A program made the translations under genes and the position numbers. A stretch of DNA of 64,000 nt from Thermodesulfobacteriota bacterium (lineage in GTDB: Bacteria > Desulfobacterota > Dissulfuribacteria > Dissulfuribacterales > QOAL01). The notes beneath the pieces are model-generated. The model saw only the letters and a list, made by a program, of their open reading frames with translations, had not been told where the DNA came from and searched no databases. This document shows positions 58,419 to 64,000 of the stretch, piece by piece. The stretch is from contig JAADCZ010000060.1 in the NCBI GenBank assembly GCA_013154175.1, forward strand, positions 7,530 through 71,529, given 5' to 3'. Within the stretch, counting starts at the first letter, position 1. Each line of letters opens with the position of its first letter.

Positions 58419-59261
58419 TTACCAGCTATAGGCAAGTCCGATGCCGCCCAGCCACTGGTTGGACGAGCCCCTATCGTCAACCACCGGGCTGTCGTCGGCA
58501 TCGCCCACGAGCCGTCTGTACTGGATACCGGTAGCGAGGTGCCAGTTCATGTTGAGATGCATGACAAAGACAGTGTTGACCCGCACGTCCTTGACACCGC
58601 TGTCGGCATCGAAGACAGGTAGCCCGGTTCTCAAGGAGTCCTTTTTGCTAACCCCAAAGTAAGTGGACATATAGTTGTCACTGGCGTAGCAAAGCCCAAG
58701 ACCAAAGCCAAAATCGAACATTTGGGACAGTGGATACCAGACCCTGCCGCTGGCCTTTACGTAGTAGCCGTCATATTCGTTGCCTACATCCGTGAGGAAA
58801 TCGATGTCTGCCAGGAACCGCTTTCTGGGGTTTTGCTTGTCTATGAATTCGACCCCGACAAACCCACCTGCCTCTATGGTGTCATCGATTTTCTTCATCT
58901 TTTTCACCACAGAGTCATCCACATCGTGGTCACGGCCAAAATGGTAATTGACCGAGGGGCCTAGACGGAACCATGAGTGGTCAATGAGGTTTATCTGCAG
59001 TTCATAGCCTTTGAGCAACAGGTACTGTTGATGCCCTTTGAACTGAAACCTAGCAAATGGCGCAACACCGAACATGTAGTCGTCTGAGCCTTCATAGTCG
59101 GGCGCAAAGCCCACTCCAAGGCCAAATATGCGTGGCATGTTGTCAATAACGAGATTCATGTCGGCTGCTGATGCCTTCTGAAACGATGCACCCAGGAGGA
59201 GCACCACGGAGACAACCATTACGGTGATGAATAGGGTTAGTTTTTTTCTGACTGGTAACAT
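58419..59261 (-). CDS. MipA/OmpV-family outer-membrane protein
   Basis: Signal peptide, alternating beta-strand pattern and an aromatic C-terminus ...GIGLAYSW. Confidence 0.7.
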   Translation of the reverse strand: MLPVRKKLTLFITVMVVSVVLLLGASFQKASAADMNLVIDNMPRIFGLGVGFAPDYEGSDDYMFGVAPFARFQFKGHQQYLLLKGYELQINLIDHSWFRLGPSVNYHFGRDHDVDDSVVKKMKKIDDTIEAGGFVGVEFIDKQNPRKRFLADIDFLTDVGNEYDGYYVKASGRVWYPLSQMFDFGFGLGLCYASDNYMSTYFGVSKKDSLRTGLPVFDADSGVKDVRVNTVFVMHLNMNWHLATGIQYRRLVGDADDSPVVDDRGSSNQWLGGIGLAYSW

Positions 59262-59584
59262 TTACACCTCCATTCCCTTTTAATTTTTAGAAGAGTATAT
59301 ATTTCACCTTAATCTAAGGCGTCGCTAAATGCAAGAAATATCAAGGGGTTAGTTGTGTTACTTGCCCTGTTAGGCAAAGTTATAACTGCTTATTATCATA
59401 TCAAAACTTACTGAATAACAATTCAATTACAATGGAAACTTATAAATCTTAAATAAGAGTTTTTGATAAGTTTAGGGAAGCTGCATGTCATTATAGCTAT
59501 AAAAAATTCTTTTCTAACTACTTGTCATTTAAAAAAATATAGTATAGCCTAAAAATTAGCTGTATTACAGCCGGGAGGGGAAAC

Positions 59585-60337
59585 ATGACGGGTTTAGGAA
59601 CGAGGGCAGCGCCCTATCTCTTGCTCTTTTTTGCAGCATTTTTGGTGACTGGCTGTGGTGACAAAGAGCGGAAGATACCAAAATACACTTTTCACCCCGC
59701 ACCGCCCTTTGATCTCTCTTTATCCTATAGCAATTACAAGTGGCAGAGTAATTTGAAATATCTTTATCAGCCCCTGCCAAAACCCCTCGATGATCCAAAA
59801 ATCGTCATAAACAAGAAAAAACATATTCTCTACCTCTTTTCAGGTGAGACCCTGATGAGGATTTACCCTGTCAATCTTGGGCCCGACCCCCTCAACGACA
59901 AGATTCAGGAAGGAGATGGCAGGACTCCCGAGGGCCAATTTTTCGTATGCACCAAAAACCCCAAGTCAAAATATTATAAGGCCCTTGGAATAAGCTATCC
60001 GTCAAAGGAAGATGCCCTTCGCGGTTTGAAGATGGGGTTTATCACCAAAAAGGAATACGATGCCATTGTCTATGCCATCGATCATGGCAAGAGGCCTCCT
60101 TGGTTTACCAAACTAGGCGGTGCCGTTTGTATTCATGGCGGAGGAATAGGCTGGGACTGGACAAGGGGATGTATCGCCCTAAGGAATGCAGATGTCCAGG
60201 AACTCTTCGAGGTTACTCCAGTGGGTACCCCTGTGACCATCATAAGCGGTGTATCCAGGCCCAGGAAAAGGGTCGTCCCTGTGCCGTCTCTTCTAACGAA
60301 GGTTAATGATGAACGTAAACGTAGGTCCCTGGATTAG
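59585..60337 (+). CDS. L,D-transpeptidase (YkuD domain) lipoprotein
   Basis: Lipobox LVTGC. Catalytic motif HGG...TRGCIALRNADVQELF. Confidence 0.85.
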   Translation: MTGLGTRAAPYLLLFFAAFLVTGCGDKERKIPKYTFHPAPPFDLSLSYSNYKWQSNLKYLYQPLPKPLDDPKIVINKKKHILYLFSGETLMRIYPVNLGPDPLNDKIQEGDGRTPEGQFFVCTKNPKSKYYKALGISYPSKEDALRGLKMGFITKKEYDAIVYAIDHGKRPPWFTKLGGAVCIHGGGIGWDWTRGCIALRNADVQELFEVTPVGTPVTIISGVSRPRKRVVPVPSLLTKVNDERKRRSLD

Positions 60338-61466
60338 CTGGGGTTGATTTTACAAACTTGTCCCTTGGGGCCCTGGGCGTCGTCCAGTTGAAGAGCCAGA
60401 AGGCATCTCTCGGGGCAAGATTTACGCAACCGTGGGACTGTTTCATTCCAAAGTTGTTGTGCCAATAGGCCCCATGAAGGGCAATTCCATTAAAGAAGTA
60501 CATGTGATAGGGCACGTCTTCCAGGAAATAGTAATCTATGCCCTTAGTTCCCCCACTCATTTTTGCCATGGCCCTCTTACCCCAGATGCGGAAGAGCCCG
60601 GTGGGGGTTTCAAACTCTGGTAGCCCAGAGGAAATAAGGGTCGCATATACCATTCTATCCCCTTCAAAGGCCTCGAGTACCTGCTCATAAAGGTTTATGT
60701 CCACCCACTTGGCATCTTCAGGGATCTTTGCAGGTCGCTCAGGGTGGGTGATGAGGGCAACCCTTCTGCCATCAACCCATTTGCCCTTGGCGAGCTTCAG
60801 CCACTTCTGCCCCTTGACGAATTTTATTTCCAATATCTTGACAAGGGTATGCTTATCAAGAAGTTCTCCATCTAGATATTCCTGTTTACCAGGCACTGCT
60901 GATGTGTATGTATCCAGGACGAGCCAACCATAGATGCCGTCCAGGGGTTGTTGTGCTAGATCCACCCCTTTGAAAGTGGACACCTTGAAGAAGGACAGAT
61001 ACTTGCCCTGTAGAAATTCGTTGGGGTTGATGTAGTACCAAGTATATTTGCCAGATTTTATGGCAAGAGGACTTTCAAGGGACACCCAAATAAAGCCGCC
61101 ATCCAGGATTTTGACTGGCTTTTTGCCTTCAAGGTTGTTCCATGCTCCCTTGTAAACGGGGGCAGGCTGCTCAGTCACCTGGGCGTAGTTGTAGGGAAGG
61201 ATGTCCCTGTGCTCAGGCCATTTGAACGATGTGTCTGGAAGTATCTTTATGACCTTGTCGCTTGCATTTGAATCTGTTGCGTTTGCGCCAGTCTTTTCCG
61301 GAGGCGGTTTTGCCAGATCCTGCACGGTTGCAGTACTGTTTCCTTGGGAAGTCTCGTTTTTACCTAATTCACCACCGTGGGAATTTTGAGTAACCAAGGG
61401 AAGAAGAAAAAAGCAGAAGATGAACAGACAGACTTTCACAAGAGTTGAGTGCAATTTCCCAGACAA
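60303..61466 (-). CDS. L,D-transpeptidase family protein with N-terminal accessory domains
   Basis: YkuD catalytic motif ALHGAYWHNNFGMKQSHGCVNLAPRDAFWLFNW. N-terminal signal peptide. Confidence 0.85.
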   Translation of the reverse strand: MSGKLHSTLVKVCLFIFCFFLLPLVTQNSHGGELGKNETSQGNSTATVQDLAKPPPEKTGANATDSNASDKVIKILPDTSFKWPEHRDILPYNYAQVTEQPAPVYKGAWNNLEGKKPVKILDGGFIWVSLESPLAIKSGKYTWYYINPNEFLQGKYLSFFKVSTFKGVDLAQQPLDGIYGWLVLDTYTSAVPGKQEYLDGELLDKHTLVKILEIKFVKGQKWLKLAKGKWVDGRRVALITHPERPAKIPEDAKWVDINLYEQVLEAFEGDRMVYATLISSGLPEFETPTGLFRIWGKRAMAKMSGGTKGIDYYFLEDVPYHMYFFNGIALHGAYWHNNFGMKQSHGCVNLAPRDAFWLFNWTTPRAPRDKFVKSTPANPGTYVYVHH

Positions 61467-61470
61467 TTTT

Positions 61471-62901
61471 TTAACCCTTTATCACTGCCAATGGTTTTAG
61501 TAATGCCACCTTTTTGGCCAGACCAGCTTCGTGGGTGACCTCTACAACCTTCCTCACATCCTTATAGGCATCGGGGGCCTCTTCAGCCGCTCCTCTAAGA
61601 CTTGCTGCCTTGAGGATTATTCCCTGTTTCCTAAGGGCGTTTATGACCCCTTTGCCCTTCCACCGTTTCAAGGCTGCCCGGCGGCTCATGGATCTGCCAG
61701 CACCATGACATGCGCTGCCCCAGGCCAGCTCTTCACCACTTTCGGTTCCTGCCAAGATGTATGAGCAGGTTCCCATGGTGCCGCCTATAAAAATTGGTTG
61801 ACCTACATGTTTGTATTTCTTGGGAAGCTCCCTGTGACCCGGGCCAAAGGCCCGTGTCGCCCCCTTCCTGTGCACAAAAAGTTTGCGCATTTTACCACCA
61901 ACTTCATGCTTTTCAACTTTACACGTATTGTGGCTAACGTCGTAAATAAGCTCAAACTCTGCACTGGGAATAACCCTCTGTACCGCCAGCCTTGCAAGAT
62001 GCCCCAGCACCTGCCTGTTGGCTAAAGCACAGTTTATGCCACATGCCACGGCCTTCATATAGTCGCTGCCCTCTGGGGATTTGATTGGGGCACATACCAG
62101 TTCCCTTTCCCTGATGGGGATGGCGTACTTCTTGGCAGCGGCTCCAAGTATTTGAAGATAGTCTGTGCCAATCTGGTGCCCAAGGGCCCTGGAGCCACAA
62201 TGTATGGAAACAACTACATCGTCCTCTTCCAGACCAAAGGCAGAGGCGCACTCCTTGTCATAGATTTTTTCAACGTATTGGACCTCGAGATAGTGGTTGC
62301 CTGAACCCAGTGTGCCTATCTGTTTCTTTTGTCTATCCTTGGCTAGTTTTGATACCTTGGAAGGGTCTGCATCCTTTATGCGGCCCCGTTCCTCGATGTA
62401 TTCCAGTTCGTCCTTGGTCCCATAGCCTTTGTCGATTGCCCACAAGGCGCCATTTCTCAGTACGTCGTCTAGTTTTGAGGCGGAAAGTTTGATCTTTCCT
62501 GTTGAGCCAACTCCAGCCGGTATGGAACGAAACAGCTCGTCCATGAGCTCATCCAACTTTGGCAGCAGCCTCTGCCTTTTGAGCCCGAGCCTGTGGCATC
62601 TGACCCCGCACGAGATGTCGTAACCCACTCCGCCCACGGAAATCACACCGCCCTGGTCTGGGTCGAAGGCAGCAACTCCGCCAATGGGGAATCCGTAGCC
62701 CCAGTGGGCATCTGGCATTGCCATCGCCCCCTTAACGATCCCTGGCAGGGAAGCCACATTGGTAAGCTGCTGCATGACCTTGTCATCCATTTCTGTGAGC
62801 AGATCGTTGTTTGCAAAGATATATCCAGGCACGCGCATTGTGCCTTCTTGGGGAATCTCCCATATGCAGCTTGAAATCCTTTTTAGTTTGCCTTTGTCCA
62901 T
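61471..62901 (-). CDS. rtcB: RNA 3'-phosphate ligase RtcB
   Basis: Metal/GMP-site motifs MPDAHWGYGFPIGG, GYDISCG, HCGSRALGHQ and GSACHGAGR. Confidence 0.95.
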   Translation of the reverse strand: MDKGKLKRISSCIWEIPQEGTMRVPGYIFANNDLLTEMDDKVMQQLTNVASLPGIVKGAMAMPDAHWGYGFPIGGVAAFDPDQGGVISVGGVGYDISCGVRCHRLGLKRQRLLPKLDELMDELFRSIPAGVGSTGKIKLSASKLDDVLRNGALWAIDKGYGTKDELEYIEERGRIKDADPSKVSKLAKDRQKKQIGTLGSGNHYLEVQYVEKIYDKECASAFGLEEDDVVVSIHCGSRALGHQIGTDYLQILGAAAKKYAIPIRERELVCAPIKSPEGSDYMKAVACGINCALANRQVLGHLARLAVQRVIPSAEFELIYDVSHNTCKVEKHEVGGKMRKLFVHRKGATRAFGPGHRELPKKYKHVGQPIFIGGTMGTCSYILAGTESGEELAWGSACHGAGRSMSRRAALKRWKGKGVINALRKQGIILKAASLRGAAEEAPDAYKDVRKVVEVTHEAGLAKKVALLKPLAVIKG

Positions 62902-62916
62902 ATCAACCTCTTGAAT

Positions 62917-63360
62917 TCATACATCTACCACACACTGGGCTATCCAGACCCCATCCTGGAACTCAACCTTTGCCTCGGTAAAGGTTGCTCCCTTGACTTC
63001 AATGCCCAGCTGGTGGATAGCCCTTGTCCATCTTTCGCCTTGGGCCAACCCTGACAGGGTGTGATCATCTATTGTCACGCTGAAGGAACTAAAGAGCATC
63101 TGTTCTATGTCCGCCAGGGCTATCAGACTGTTTATCCAGGCCACAAATAGCCCGGTAAGATCGTATGAGGAGCAATTTACCTCTTTTTTATGGACTGGTC
63201 TTACGAGGGAGAGATCCTCCACCATGAGGGAGAACAGTGCCCGTGCACCGTTTTCAAAGGCCTCCTCCAGGGTTGTACCAATGCCCCTTATTCCTATATC
63301 GGCAATATGGTCAAAGGTCTCCCAGCCACTTTTCAGGTTGGCCATTTCCTTTTGCCCCAT
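62917..63360 (-). CDS. archease (RtcB activator)
   Basis: WETFDHIADIGIRGIG N-terminal motif and about 140 aa in size. The start is ambiguous (ATG at 63345, 63360 or 63369). The track start at 63450 is unlikely because it overlaps the upstream membrane-protein gene by more than 100 nt. Confidence 0.8.
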   Translation of the reverse strand: MGQKEMANLKSGWETFDHIADIGIRGIGTTLEEAFENGARALFSLMVEDLSLVRPVHKKEVNCSSYDLTGLFVAWINSLIALADIEQMLFSSFSVTIDDHTLSGLAQGERWTRAIHQLGIEVKGATFTEAKVEFQDGVWIAQCVVDV

Positions 63361-63587
63361 TCTATCCATCCCCAGGTTGAAAGGCCTGTAAACACGACAA
63401 AGAGTGCAGCTTGGGCGTAGATCTTGTGATAGATGTTGACGGCAATCCAACCGATGTTTGCCAGAGTGTAGATGGCAAAACTGGCCCTCTTTTTCTTGAT
63501 ATTCAACACGGCCGCATAGATGCTTATGGCCGTAAGGGTCCAGGGCAGATAAATGGTCATTATTTCATGGACCAAGGTTTCTCTCAT
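63333..63587 (-). CDS. 84-aa three-TM membrane protein resembling the N-terminal triple-helix bundle of PnuC-type vitamin transporters
   Basis: MRETLVHEIMTIYLPWTLTAISIYAAVLNIKKKRASFAIYTLANIGWIAVNIYHKIYAQAALFVVFTGLSTWGWIEWGKRKWPT. Three hydrophobic helices. The end of helix 3 (IYAQAALFVVFTGLSTWGWIEW) parallels the PnuC motif ...LYA..LLQ.FF....IYGWY.W. Its ATG overlaps the upstream stop (ATGA). Confidence 0.55.
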   Translation of the reverse strand: MRETLVHEIMTIYLPWTLTAISIYAAVLNIKKKRASFAIYTLANIGWIAVNIYHKIYAQAALFVVFTGLSTWGWIEWGKRKWPT

Positions 63588-64000
63588 TTCAGATACTCTA
63601 GCAGTGCTTTGAATTGGGGAGTTCCTGCCTTTTTGATGATTTGATAGATTATCGTCTCGGTGGGAGCGCAATATATGCCGTTGGTATTCATAAGGGATCT
63701 TGCAAGCTTGATGTTTTTCTTGTTCCTGGAAGAGGTTGCGTCAATGGCGACCCAGGTGTTAAAGCCCCTTTCAACTGAGGCCACAGCGGTTTGAAAGACA
63801 CAGATGTGCGTCTCCACACCGGCCAATATCAAGGTGTCCATGGAAGCAGGCAGCTGCGATATCACCCTTTGAAACTCCTGGTTGTAAAAGCAGTTGAATT
63901 CGGTCTTGTCCACGTGATGGACACCTGTTTCTGGCAACTTAATGTCATCCACTATTGGGCCAAGGCCCTTCTTGTACTGGGTGGTTGCAATGACAGGGAC
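63584..64000 (-). CDS. isochorismatase-family cysteine hydrolase (5' end outside window)
   Basis: The frame is open to the window edge (VPVIATTQYKKGLGPIVDDI...). Catalytic-Cys motif LAGVETHICVFQTA. Confidence 0.8.
   Translation of the reverse strand, partial: VPVIATTQYKKGLGPIVDDIKLPETGVHHVDKTEFNCFYNQEFQRVISQLPASMDTLILAGVETHICVFQTAVASVERGFNTWVAIDATSSRNKKNIKLARSLMNTNGIYCAPTETIIYQIIKKAGTPQFKALLEYLK

Follow-up and report, generated by a model that had tools for sequence, protein, structure and literature searches.

A natural half-size Pnu protein encoded in one operon with archease and RtcB in a Thermodesulfobacteriota bacterium

The right end of a 64-kb stretch of DNA from a Thermodesulfobacteriota bacterium (64,000 nucleotides (nt) of contig JAADCZ010000060.1, hereafter the window) carries a small open reading frame (ORF), here called SemiPnu, that lies between the gene for an isochorismatase-family hydrolase and an archease-rtcB gene pair. 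The hydrolase gene runs off the window, and a public contig of 6.8 kb (L001), which shares 3219 nt with the window at 100% identity, adds the parts beyond its end: the full hydrolase gene of 186 amino acids (aa), a GGAGG ribosome-binding site and a terminator. The comparisons described below make it a well-supported conclusion that SemiPnu is a natural half-size Pnu protein, related to the carriers PnuC, PnuT and PnuX, and that it belongs to a large, mostly phage-borne family and constitutes no new kind of system. The genes at this end of the window are all on the minus strand, and the features to which we refer are as follows.

63333..63587, minus strand: SemiPnu ORF, 84 aa, from ATG 63587-63585 to TGA 63335-63333, with a PF04973 match of 34.8 bits (gathering threshold, GA, 27.3)
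63560, minus strand: ATG of Met10, the conserved and likely true SemiPnu start as judged from start-codon conservation, giving a 75-aa product
63456..63479, minus strand: codons F37-A-I-Y40-T-L-A-N44 in transmembrane helix 2 (TM2) of SemiPnu, where the Pnu ligand-binding motif WxxW(x)3D/N is present once
63357..63392, minus strand: TM3 stretch of SemiPnu from F66 (outer-gate Tyr equivalent) to W77 (inner-gate Trp equivalent), with G73 within it
63333..63345, minus strand: the 13 nt shared by the 3' end of SemiPnu and the beginning of archease at ATG 63345-63343 (28 nt are shared if archease begins at ATG 63360)
63584..64000, minus strand: isochorismatase-family hydrolase, C-terminal 138 codons of 186 aa, cut by the window end (full gene, L001 3467-4027)
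62917..63345, minus strand: archease, 142 aa (147 aa from the alternative start 63360), PF01951 at E=4.5e-36, profile positions 1-136 of 136
61471..62901, minus strand: RtcB RNA ligase, 476 aa, PF01139 at E=2.3e-168, profile positions 1-426 of 426
60303..61466, minus strand: YkuD-type L,D-transpeptidase, directly 3' of rtcB

SemiPnu is a genuine gene under strong purifying selection. A search of 5.8 billion proteins returned 54 homologues, all of 50-95 aa, and every one of them but a 50-aa partial sequence carries a precomputed PF04973 call. Frames and start codons were compared across 53 related loci from species-representative genomes (L003-L055), and the SemiPnu frame is intact in all 53; the disruption in close relatives that the first-pass annotation had named among the grounds for abandoning its reading is not seen in them. 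Among 15 close relatives the rate of nonsynonymous change (dN) is 0.04-0.15, the synonymous rate (dS) is saturated, and the median dN/dS is about 0.05. Across loci the identity of SemiPnu is 65-89%, as against 40-65% for the hydrolase and 45-67% for archease. On the strength of the dN/dS ratio, the saturated dS and the intact frames we rejected the notion of a spurious ORF or a decaying remnant of full-length pnuC, and give it almost no credence. The Pfam match is confined to profile positions 109-175 of 175, the part that stands for the C-terminal bundle, which speaks for a remnant, but the tightly packed flanking genes leave no space for missing helices, and short relatives of SemiPnu fill more than a thousand sequence clusters, as counted below.

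The product is likely 75 aa long, starting at Met10, 23 nt past the hydrolase stop, because the Met10 start is conserved and the nine residues N-terminal of it are not. Of the 53 loci, 41 have an ATG where Met10 aligns, and in many loci no other start is possible. The hydrolase TGA (63586-63584) shares an ATGA with the first SemiPnu ATG, as had been noted at first pass and taken for translational coupling of the two genes; the overlap exists, but ATGA or GTGA overlaps are limited to the nearest relatives, and the conserved SemiPnu start lies 17-36 nt past the hydrolase stop (85-173 nt in some loci). The overlap at the other end of the gene, also noticed at first pass, has proved durable, since 13-17 nt are shared between the SemiPnu 3' end and the archease start in about 35 related loci. 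The ribosome-binding site of archease, AGGA, sits within the K-R-K codons of the SemiPnu tail.

Three hydrophobic segments (residues about 12-30, 36-52 and 56-75) and an AlphaFold2 (AF2) model of three helices (H2-30, H35-53 and H57-79; mean predicted local distance difference test score, pLDDT, 87.3) bear out the early claim that the 84-aa ORF encodes three TM helices. From the basic residues of a KKKR loop and the KRK tail, the N terminus is predicted to lie outside and the C terminus inside (N-out/C-in). A hidden Markov model (HMM) search against PF04973 (NMN_transporter; Transporter Classification, TC, 4.B.1), proposed with that claim, gave a match at E=2.1e-8 with a score above the GA. 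SemiPnu is not a PnuC orthologue, because it scores 14.9 bits against the NCBIfam PnuC equivalog TIGR01528, far under the cutoff of 42.45, nor does it have the two-bundle 3+1+3 layout of Pnu proteins (7-8 TM), being a single bundle of 3 helices in 75-84 aa.

The relation to PnuC extends to both halves of that protein. A profile built from an alignment of 119 diverse short relatives (A2) found the Neisseria mucosa PnuC structure 4QTN among PDB sequences at E=2e-10, through two matched stretches: residues 159-240 (TM5-7, the second three-helix bundle, THB2) with 36 bits and residues 44-120 (TM1-3, THB1) with 17 bits. A profile of the close family (A1) had no match among PDB sequences, so that 4QTN was reached by the broader A2 alone. 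Matches on two stretches of 4QTN indicate that the SemiPnu unit is homologous to each internal PnuC repeat, and the profile scores place it closest to TM5-7. The first-pass annotation was thus right to see a single-repeat PnuC homologue, but the bundle that it named, the first one, is the less similar of the two.

The fold agrees with the profile. When the AF2 model was searched against the PDB with Foldseek, ranks 1-2 were taken by 4qtn_A and 4qtn_C with a probability of 1.00 and template-modelling scores (TMq) of 0.67-0.72; the superposition covers 73-75 residues with a root-mean-square deviation (rmsd) of 2.6-2.9 A, and the E-value is as high as 0.3 because the domain is small. Homology to SemiSWEET or PQ-loop proteins, for which a search had likewise been proposed, was rejected on sequence and on fold. 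Neither MtN3_slv (PF03083) nor PQ-loop (PF04193) matched SemiPnu at E<=10 or any of the 119 relatives at E<=0.01. SemiSWEET 4qnd stood at Foldseek rank 14 with a TMq of 0.41 and an rmsd of 7.3 A, and 5uhq had a TMq of 0.42, compared with about 0.7 for PnuC.

Pnu carriers are recognised by a ligand-binding motif, WxxW(x)3D/N, in TM6 of PnuC and PnuT, by an inner gate formed by the Trp that ends TM3 and TM7, and by an outer-gate Tyr 11 residues earlier (PMC5749112). SemiPnu carries one copy of each. F37xxY40xxxN44 in TM2 aligns (hmmalign) with W-A-L-W-I-V-V-N of 4QTN and is a conservative variant of the ligand-binding motif; in each of the two 4QTN repeats the inner-gate Trp aligns with W77, and F66 stands where PnuC and PnuT have their outer-gate Tyr. 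Among the 119 relatives the most conserved positions are those of the motif and gates. The family consensus is FxxWxxxN (F37 93%, W at position 40 86%, N44 94%); position 66 is Tyr or Phe in 91% and Tyr in 69%, with Phe in the SemiPnu studied here; and G73 and W77 (99% each), Q59 (85%) and N29 (84%) complete the set. In TM2 and in TM3 the conserved residues line up on a single face of the helix (p about 0.015).

When 1.84 billion cluster representatives were scanned exhaustively with HMMER, 1218 relatives, counted as clusters at 50% identity, reached E<=1e-3, and 244 of them reached E<=1e-10. The best 150 of the 1218 are all 67-155 aa long (median 84) and each has a single matched stretch; PF04973 is matched by 27/27 close and 119/119 diverse short relatives. 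Judged by these profile searches, the SemiPnu family is large and is made up of single-repeat proteins. Many of its members are viral. One peptide pattern (profile subset A4, viral scan) led to 55 IMG/VR contigs (L058-L112), 54 of which have the profile match in a short single-repeat ORF (median 75 aa). Many viral proteins of 68-100 aa in BFVD have the same fold, with template-modelling scores of 0.7-0.9. PHROG family phrog_1880, named 'PnuC-like', is matched by 94 of the 119 relatives, and further PHROG families are 2421, 19093 and 14697. Databases already tag such short proteins PnuC-like by annotation transfer, as for gp93 of Arthrobacter phage Hankly, an 85-aa protein entered in GenBank as 'PnuC-like nicotinamide riboside transporter'.

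Several individual relatives deserve mention. The three-helix fold is also found in proteins of eukaryotic viruses, namely AMV001 of Amsacta moorei entomopoxvirus (80 aa) and a 101-aa protein of invertebrate iridescent virus 30. Two of the loci, binned as Micrarchaeota and Paceibacterota (L054, L055), resemble phage replication modules, with a DNA ligase, a PD-(D/E)XK nuclease and a PolA-UDG fusion. A homologue of 95 aa (P0023), from a metagenome-assembled genome (MAG) of Deltaproteobacteria, has a 15-residue internal tandem duplication, IIVNIYHGIYAQAAR / IIVNIYHGIYAQAAL, across the TM2-TM3 junction, which may be genuine or may stem from misassembly. The locus in a MAG labelled Candidatus Methanogaster, an ANME-2 archaeon (L041), is 99.99% identical over 9772 nt to one in a SEEP-SRB2 bacterial MAG from the same sample (L042), one sequence was thus binned twice, and its assignment to an archaeon is probably an error of binning; another locus with an 'archaeon' label (L028) may be a similar case.

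The abundance of the family in phages, in IMG/VR contigs, BFVD structures and PHROG families alike, raises the question of whether SemiPnu transports anything. It could be a small membrane protein inherited from a phage, with a holin-like, superinfection-exclusion or membrane-perturbing role, in which the Pnu bundle fold has merely been kept. The genes next to the phage relatives (41 distinct) are generic phage genes such as those for terminase, helix-turn-helix (HTH) proteins, sigma factors and methylases, which suits such a role. So do the size, the three TM helices, the N-out/C-in topology and the basic C-terminal tail of SemiPnu, which we take to resemble those of class I holins. On the other hand, no endolysin family is among the 25 commonest neighbour families of the phage relatives, the top-conserved positions are precisely the Pnu ligand-binding and gate sites (N44, Q59 and W77), set on single helix faces, and the chromosomal clade keeps its gene order in many species and does not lie in a prophage. 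We therefore hold a non-transport role to be quite unlikely. Hydrolase, kinase and RtcB families are all absent from the same 25.

At the window end, hydrolase, SemiPnu, archease and rtcB form one compact transcription unit of four genes, in keeping with the single operon that had been proposed for them; archease and rtcB are adjacent on the same strand and both products are full-length Pfam matches. The unit is taken to start at the hydrolase gene because a terminator and a ribosome-binding site stand ahead of it: a very strong intrinsic terminator with a 15-bp stem (L001 3386-3420), which ends the preceding symporter operon, and the GGAGG noted above. The sequence upstream of position 64000, whose recovery had been recommended, thus supplied the whole hydrolase, but no convincing sigma-70 promoter above shuffle expectation was seen. 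An Rfam search of the extended locus gave no riboswitch and only 2 sub-threshold snoRNA-like chance matches, none of the 4 operon proteins matched a PADLOC anti-phage defence model at E<=0.01, and the 64-kb window holds no second SemiPnu copy.

Both flanks of the unit were also inspected. No terminator-like site was found between rtcB and the YkuD gene, so the YkuD gene may be co-transcribed with the unit; functionally it is probably unrelated to it. The first YkuD ORF starts a few bases from the rtcB stop, and the region beyond rtcB (window 58419-61466) holds, besides this gene (60303-61466, minus strand), a second YkuD gene (59585-60337, plus strand) and a gene for a MipA-family outer-membrane protein (58419-59261, minus strand). 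On the other side, up to 3.6 kb past the window's right end, L001 1272-3420 encodes a VC_2705-family Na+/solute symporter (591 aa) with a DUF4212 small subunit (83 aa), a pair that keeps its place beside the SemiPnu operon in the closest relatives, with 91-97% identity.

The hydrolase belongs to the isochorismatase family (PF00857, E=2e-20), as the first-pass annotation had it, and its D18-K80-C114 aligns with the catalytic triad of 8rkz and 2b34. The part of that annotation that does not hold is the kinship with nicotinamidases. The best PDB matches are ISOC-like 8rkz (1.4e-23), then 2b34, 1x9g and 1xn4, and YcaC (1yac); the best NCBIfam matches are YcaC, PRK11440, BiuH and RutB, all far under their cutoffs, and no NCBIfam nicotinamidase model matched. 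The PncA-type structure 3s2s was matched at 8.6e-4 over a partial region, and BLASTP against Mycobacterium tuberculosis PncA, with a PncA query sequence entered by hand, gave E=33. These alignments mark the enzyme as an ISOC/YcaC-type cysteine hydrolase. A nicotinamidase identity, which would call for specific similarity to PncA-type enzymes including their metal-binding Asp/His cluster, was rejected, since no nicotinamidase model of NCBIfam matched and PncA-type structures reached about 1e-3 at best. Three of the solved relatives (2b34, 1x9g and 1xn4) are structural-genomics entries named 'MAR1 ribonuclease', and it is a curious coincidence that an RNase-type label is attached to relatives of a gene that heads an RNA-ligase operon.

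The identity of the hydrolase bears directly on the function first suggested for the pair, in which nicotinamide, its riboside or a similar amide would enter through SemiPnu and be deamidated or hydrolysed, and so trapped, by the hydrolase translated along with SemiPnu, the two genes forming an uptake module. In favour of such a module, Pnu carriers generally need intracellular trapping (PMC5749112), the triad of the hydrolase is intact, the window and the nearest relatives show the ATGA/GTGA overlap, and the hydrolase gene lies directly upstream of SemiPnu in 38-40 of 51 related loci. The association with isochorismatase genes that was to be surveyed is therefore real among these loci, but it does not extend to the 25 commonest neighbour families in phages. 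Against the module, the enzyme is nearest to ISOC-like, 'MAR1' and YcaC proteins and not to nicotinamidases, the overlap of the two genes is unconserved, and seven loci keep SemiPnu and archease with no adjoining hydrolase (rtcB is in view in six of them). The role of the hydrolase as a metabolic trap is thus unsupported, and we regard the two-gene module as unlikely.

Gene order was counted from the SemiPnu side in those 51 related genome loci. The full order hydrolase-SemiPnu-archease-rtcB occurs in 31 of them (plus 2 that are truncated), SemiPnu-archease-rtcB without hydrolase in 6 (plus 1), and hydrolase-SemiPnu without archease or rtcB in 4; archease alone is missing in 1, and SemiPnu stands alone in 3. 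As a guard against ascertainment bias, 80 metagenome loci were sampled from the archease side. In these rtcB adjoins archease in 60 of the 65 loci with enough downstream sequence, and SemiPnu lies upstream of archease in 7 of 73, all in or near the present clade. Among the archease loci (L121-L192), the commonest same-strand upstream neighbour outside the SemiPnu clade is a gene for a radical S-adenosylmethionine (SAM) protein of about 340 aa, which accounts for 9 of the 40 genes scanned; the others are of various kinds. A general functional linkage of RtcB and Pnu proteins was accordingly rejected as a rule. The link is confined to one hydrothermal/seep lineage of Thermodesulfobacteriota type, in which the MAG labels include Thermodesulfatator, Dissulfuribacter and SEEP-SRB2.

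These counts also bear on the idea that SemiPnu is part of an RNA-repair module, either as a membrane tether or regulator of archease and RtcB or, with the hydrolase, in the handling of a nucleoside-like metabolite tied to repair. The overlap with the archease start in about 35 loci implies coupled translation, SemiPnu and archease (with rtcB) persist together in the seven loci where the hydrolase has been lost, and the nearest solved relatives of the hydrolase bear the historical ribonuclease label. However, archease-rtcB pairs of other lineages do without SemiPnu (66 of 73), SemiPnu occurs without archease-rtcB both beside the hydrolase (4 loci) and alone (3 loci), and we found no paper, in the literature searched, that links RtcB with PnuC or isochorismatases. 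In two loci (L016 and L023), moreover, SemiPnu is followed directly by the YkuD gene and just the intervening archease-rtcB pair is absent, which suggests that archease-rtcB is a two-gene cassette inserted or deleted at this point. We see only a slim chance that SemiPnu serves RNA repair. The link is most likely lineage-specific operon packaging and not a general functional dependency, and it is plausibly held in place by the archease start and ribosome-binding site inside the SemiPnu coding sequence. The two loci that lack the cassette (L016 4469-9209 and L023 4285-9220) have the order PNP_UDP_1-like gene, hydrolase, SemiPnu, YkuD and RNase E/G; the PNP_UDP_1-like neighbour, of the nucleosidase/phosphorylase superfamily, is a weak hint at nucleoside metabolism.

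Considering the evidence together, we judge it probable, though by no great measure, that SemiPnu is a stand-alone three-helix Pnu bundle that acts as a parallel oligomer and facilitated-diffusion carrier, and that its association with archease-rtcB is a matter of operon packaging within one lineage. On this view SemiPnu, at about 75 aa, would be a free-standing protein that comprises one three-helix bundle of the PnuC, PnuT and PnuX fold. Since three helices cannot enclose a substrate path, two or more protomers would have to assemble, and since the predicted N-out/C-in orientation equals that of both PnuC bundles, they would do so in parallel, as a six-helix bundle resembling the PnuC core. 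The simplest such assembly would be a homodimer, and a homomer is favoured because the window has no second SemiPnu copy. The assembly would let a small vitamin- or nucleoside-type substrate, uncharged or cationic, pass by facilitated diffusion. In the Thermodesulfobacteriota/SEEP-SRB2-like lineage, SemiPnu would be transcribed with the upstream ISOC/YcaC-type hydrolase and translationally coupled to archease-rtcB through the 13-17-nt overlap that holds the archease start and ribosome-binding site, and this overlap would lock it into the operon.

Several observations count against a carrier of this kind. No trapping kinase (NadR, thiamine kinase or nucleoside kinase) adjoins SemiPnu here or is among the 25 commonest phage neighbour families, and net uptake by characterised Pnu carriers relies on intracellular metabolic trapping (PMC5749112). 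The Rfam search yielded no riboswitch that would name a ligand. A SemiPnu homodimer would hold two binding motifs, as against one in PnuC, and in the present clade the second Trp of the motif has become Tyr and the outer-gate Tyr has become Phe. The generic neighbourhood of the phage relatives, with its terminase, HTH and sigma-factor genes, would fit a non-transport membrane role as well. Finally, SemiPnu is so tightly and consistently coupled to archease that a real functional link may exist, to which our reading gives too little weight. A bolder proposal takes that coupling at face value: SemiPnu would be an extant half-transporter from which PnuC arose by duplication, working as a parallel homodimer and wired, together with the hydrolase, into RNA repair in these lineages of hydrothermal sulfate reducers, through a nucleoside-like metabolite that must be taken up or removed for recovery by archease and RtcB. 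This would explain why the SemiPnu frame is fused onto the archease start, but we consider the proposal as a whole improbable.

A single-bundle carrier of Pnu type is of interest because PnuC is a reference case in the debate on how carriers of 7 TM evolved, that is, whether the repeat is of 3 or 4 TM and whether Pnu and SWEET proteins are divergent or convergent (PMC7176098, PMC7162841); the repeat unit of PnuC and its relation to SWEET are described as unresolved (PMC7176098). A natural single-bundle Pnu family would support the 3-TM repeat unit. SemiSWEETs, the natural half-size SWEETs, made structure and mechanism tractable, and SemiPnu, at about 75 aa, could likewise serve as a minimal and symmetric system in which to study the structure and transport mechanism of Pnu proteins. 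With a 75-residue protein at hand, both the hypothetical half-size Pnu protein and the question of the PnuC repeat unit become directly testable. The family also implies that the automatic name 'PnuC' has been given to many short phage and bacterial proteins that fall short of full transporters. That SemiPnu is fused to archease-rtcB, by comparison, is a curiosity limited to one lineage. Natural half-size Pnu proteins are not described in the open-access literature that was searched, although a brief mention in subscription papers is possible, and no experimental work on the short phage 'PnuC-like' proteins was found in the literature.

The closest known systems are PnuC (Neisseria mucosa, 4QTN), PnuT and PnuX. 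SemiPnu shares with them significant sequence homology, the fold of the three-helix bundle, and the WxxW(x)3D/N-type motif, inner-gate Trp and outer-gate aromatic residue at equivalent positions, and its predicted N-out/C-in orientation is that of each PnuC bundle. It differs in having 3 TM and about 75 aa, compared with 3+1+3 or 8 TM and about 190-240 aa; in lacking the linker helix TM4 of PnuC; in its need to oligomerise to form a pore; in the FxxYxxxN motif and outer-gate Phe of its clade; and in having neither a trapping kinase nor a riboswitch beside it. With SemiSWEET (4QND) and SWEET proteins the likeness is one of analogy alone, in that each is a three-TM half-unit of a 3+1+3 carrier, SemiSWEET being a parallel homodimer; there is no detectable sequence similarity to SemiSWEET, SWEET or PQ-loop proteins, and the structural match is poor, which agrees with the helices being connected differently in the two kinds of bundle, Pnu and SWEET (PMC7176098).

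The short 'PnuC-like' proteins of phages, such as Hankly gp93 and the 84-aa protein of Gordonia phage Avazak, are members of the same single-repeat family, with the same size and three-helix fold; they differ in being phage-borne, in an identity of about 30-40% to SemiPnu, and in having no hydrolase, archease or rtcB as neighbours. Archease-RtcB operons elsewhere have archease directly ahead of rtcB, as here, but only in this clade is SemiPnu, usually with the hydrolase, fused on their 5' side so as to overlap the archease start. The term 'semiPnu' occurs once in the searchable literature, for a hypothetical 3-TM ancestor proposed by Jaehme, Guskov and Slotboom in 2015, as described in PMC7162841, and the architecture given there, a stand-alone three-TM Pnu protodomain, is exactly that of SemiPnu. 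The stronger similarity of SemiPnu to THB2 would fit either an ancestral origin or a secondary derivation from a C-terminal bundle. Set beside that hypothetical ancestor, the SemiPnu family differs in being extant and widespread.

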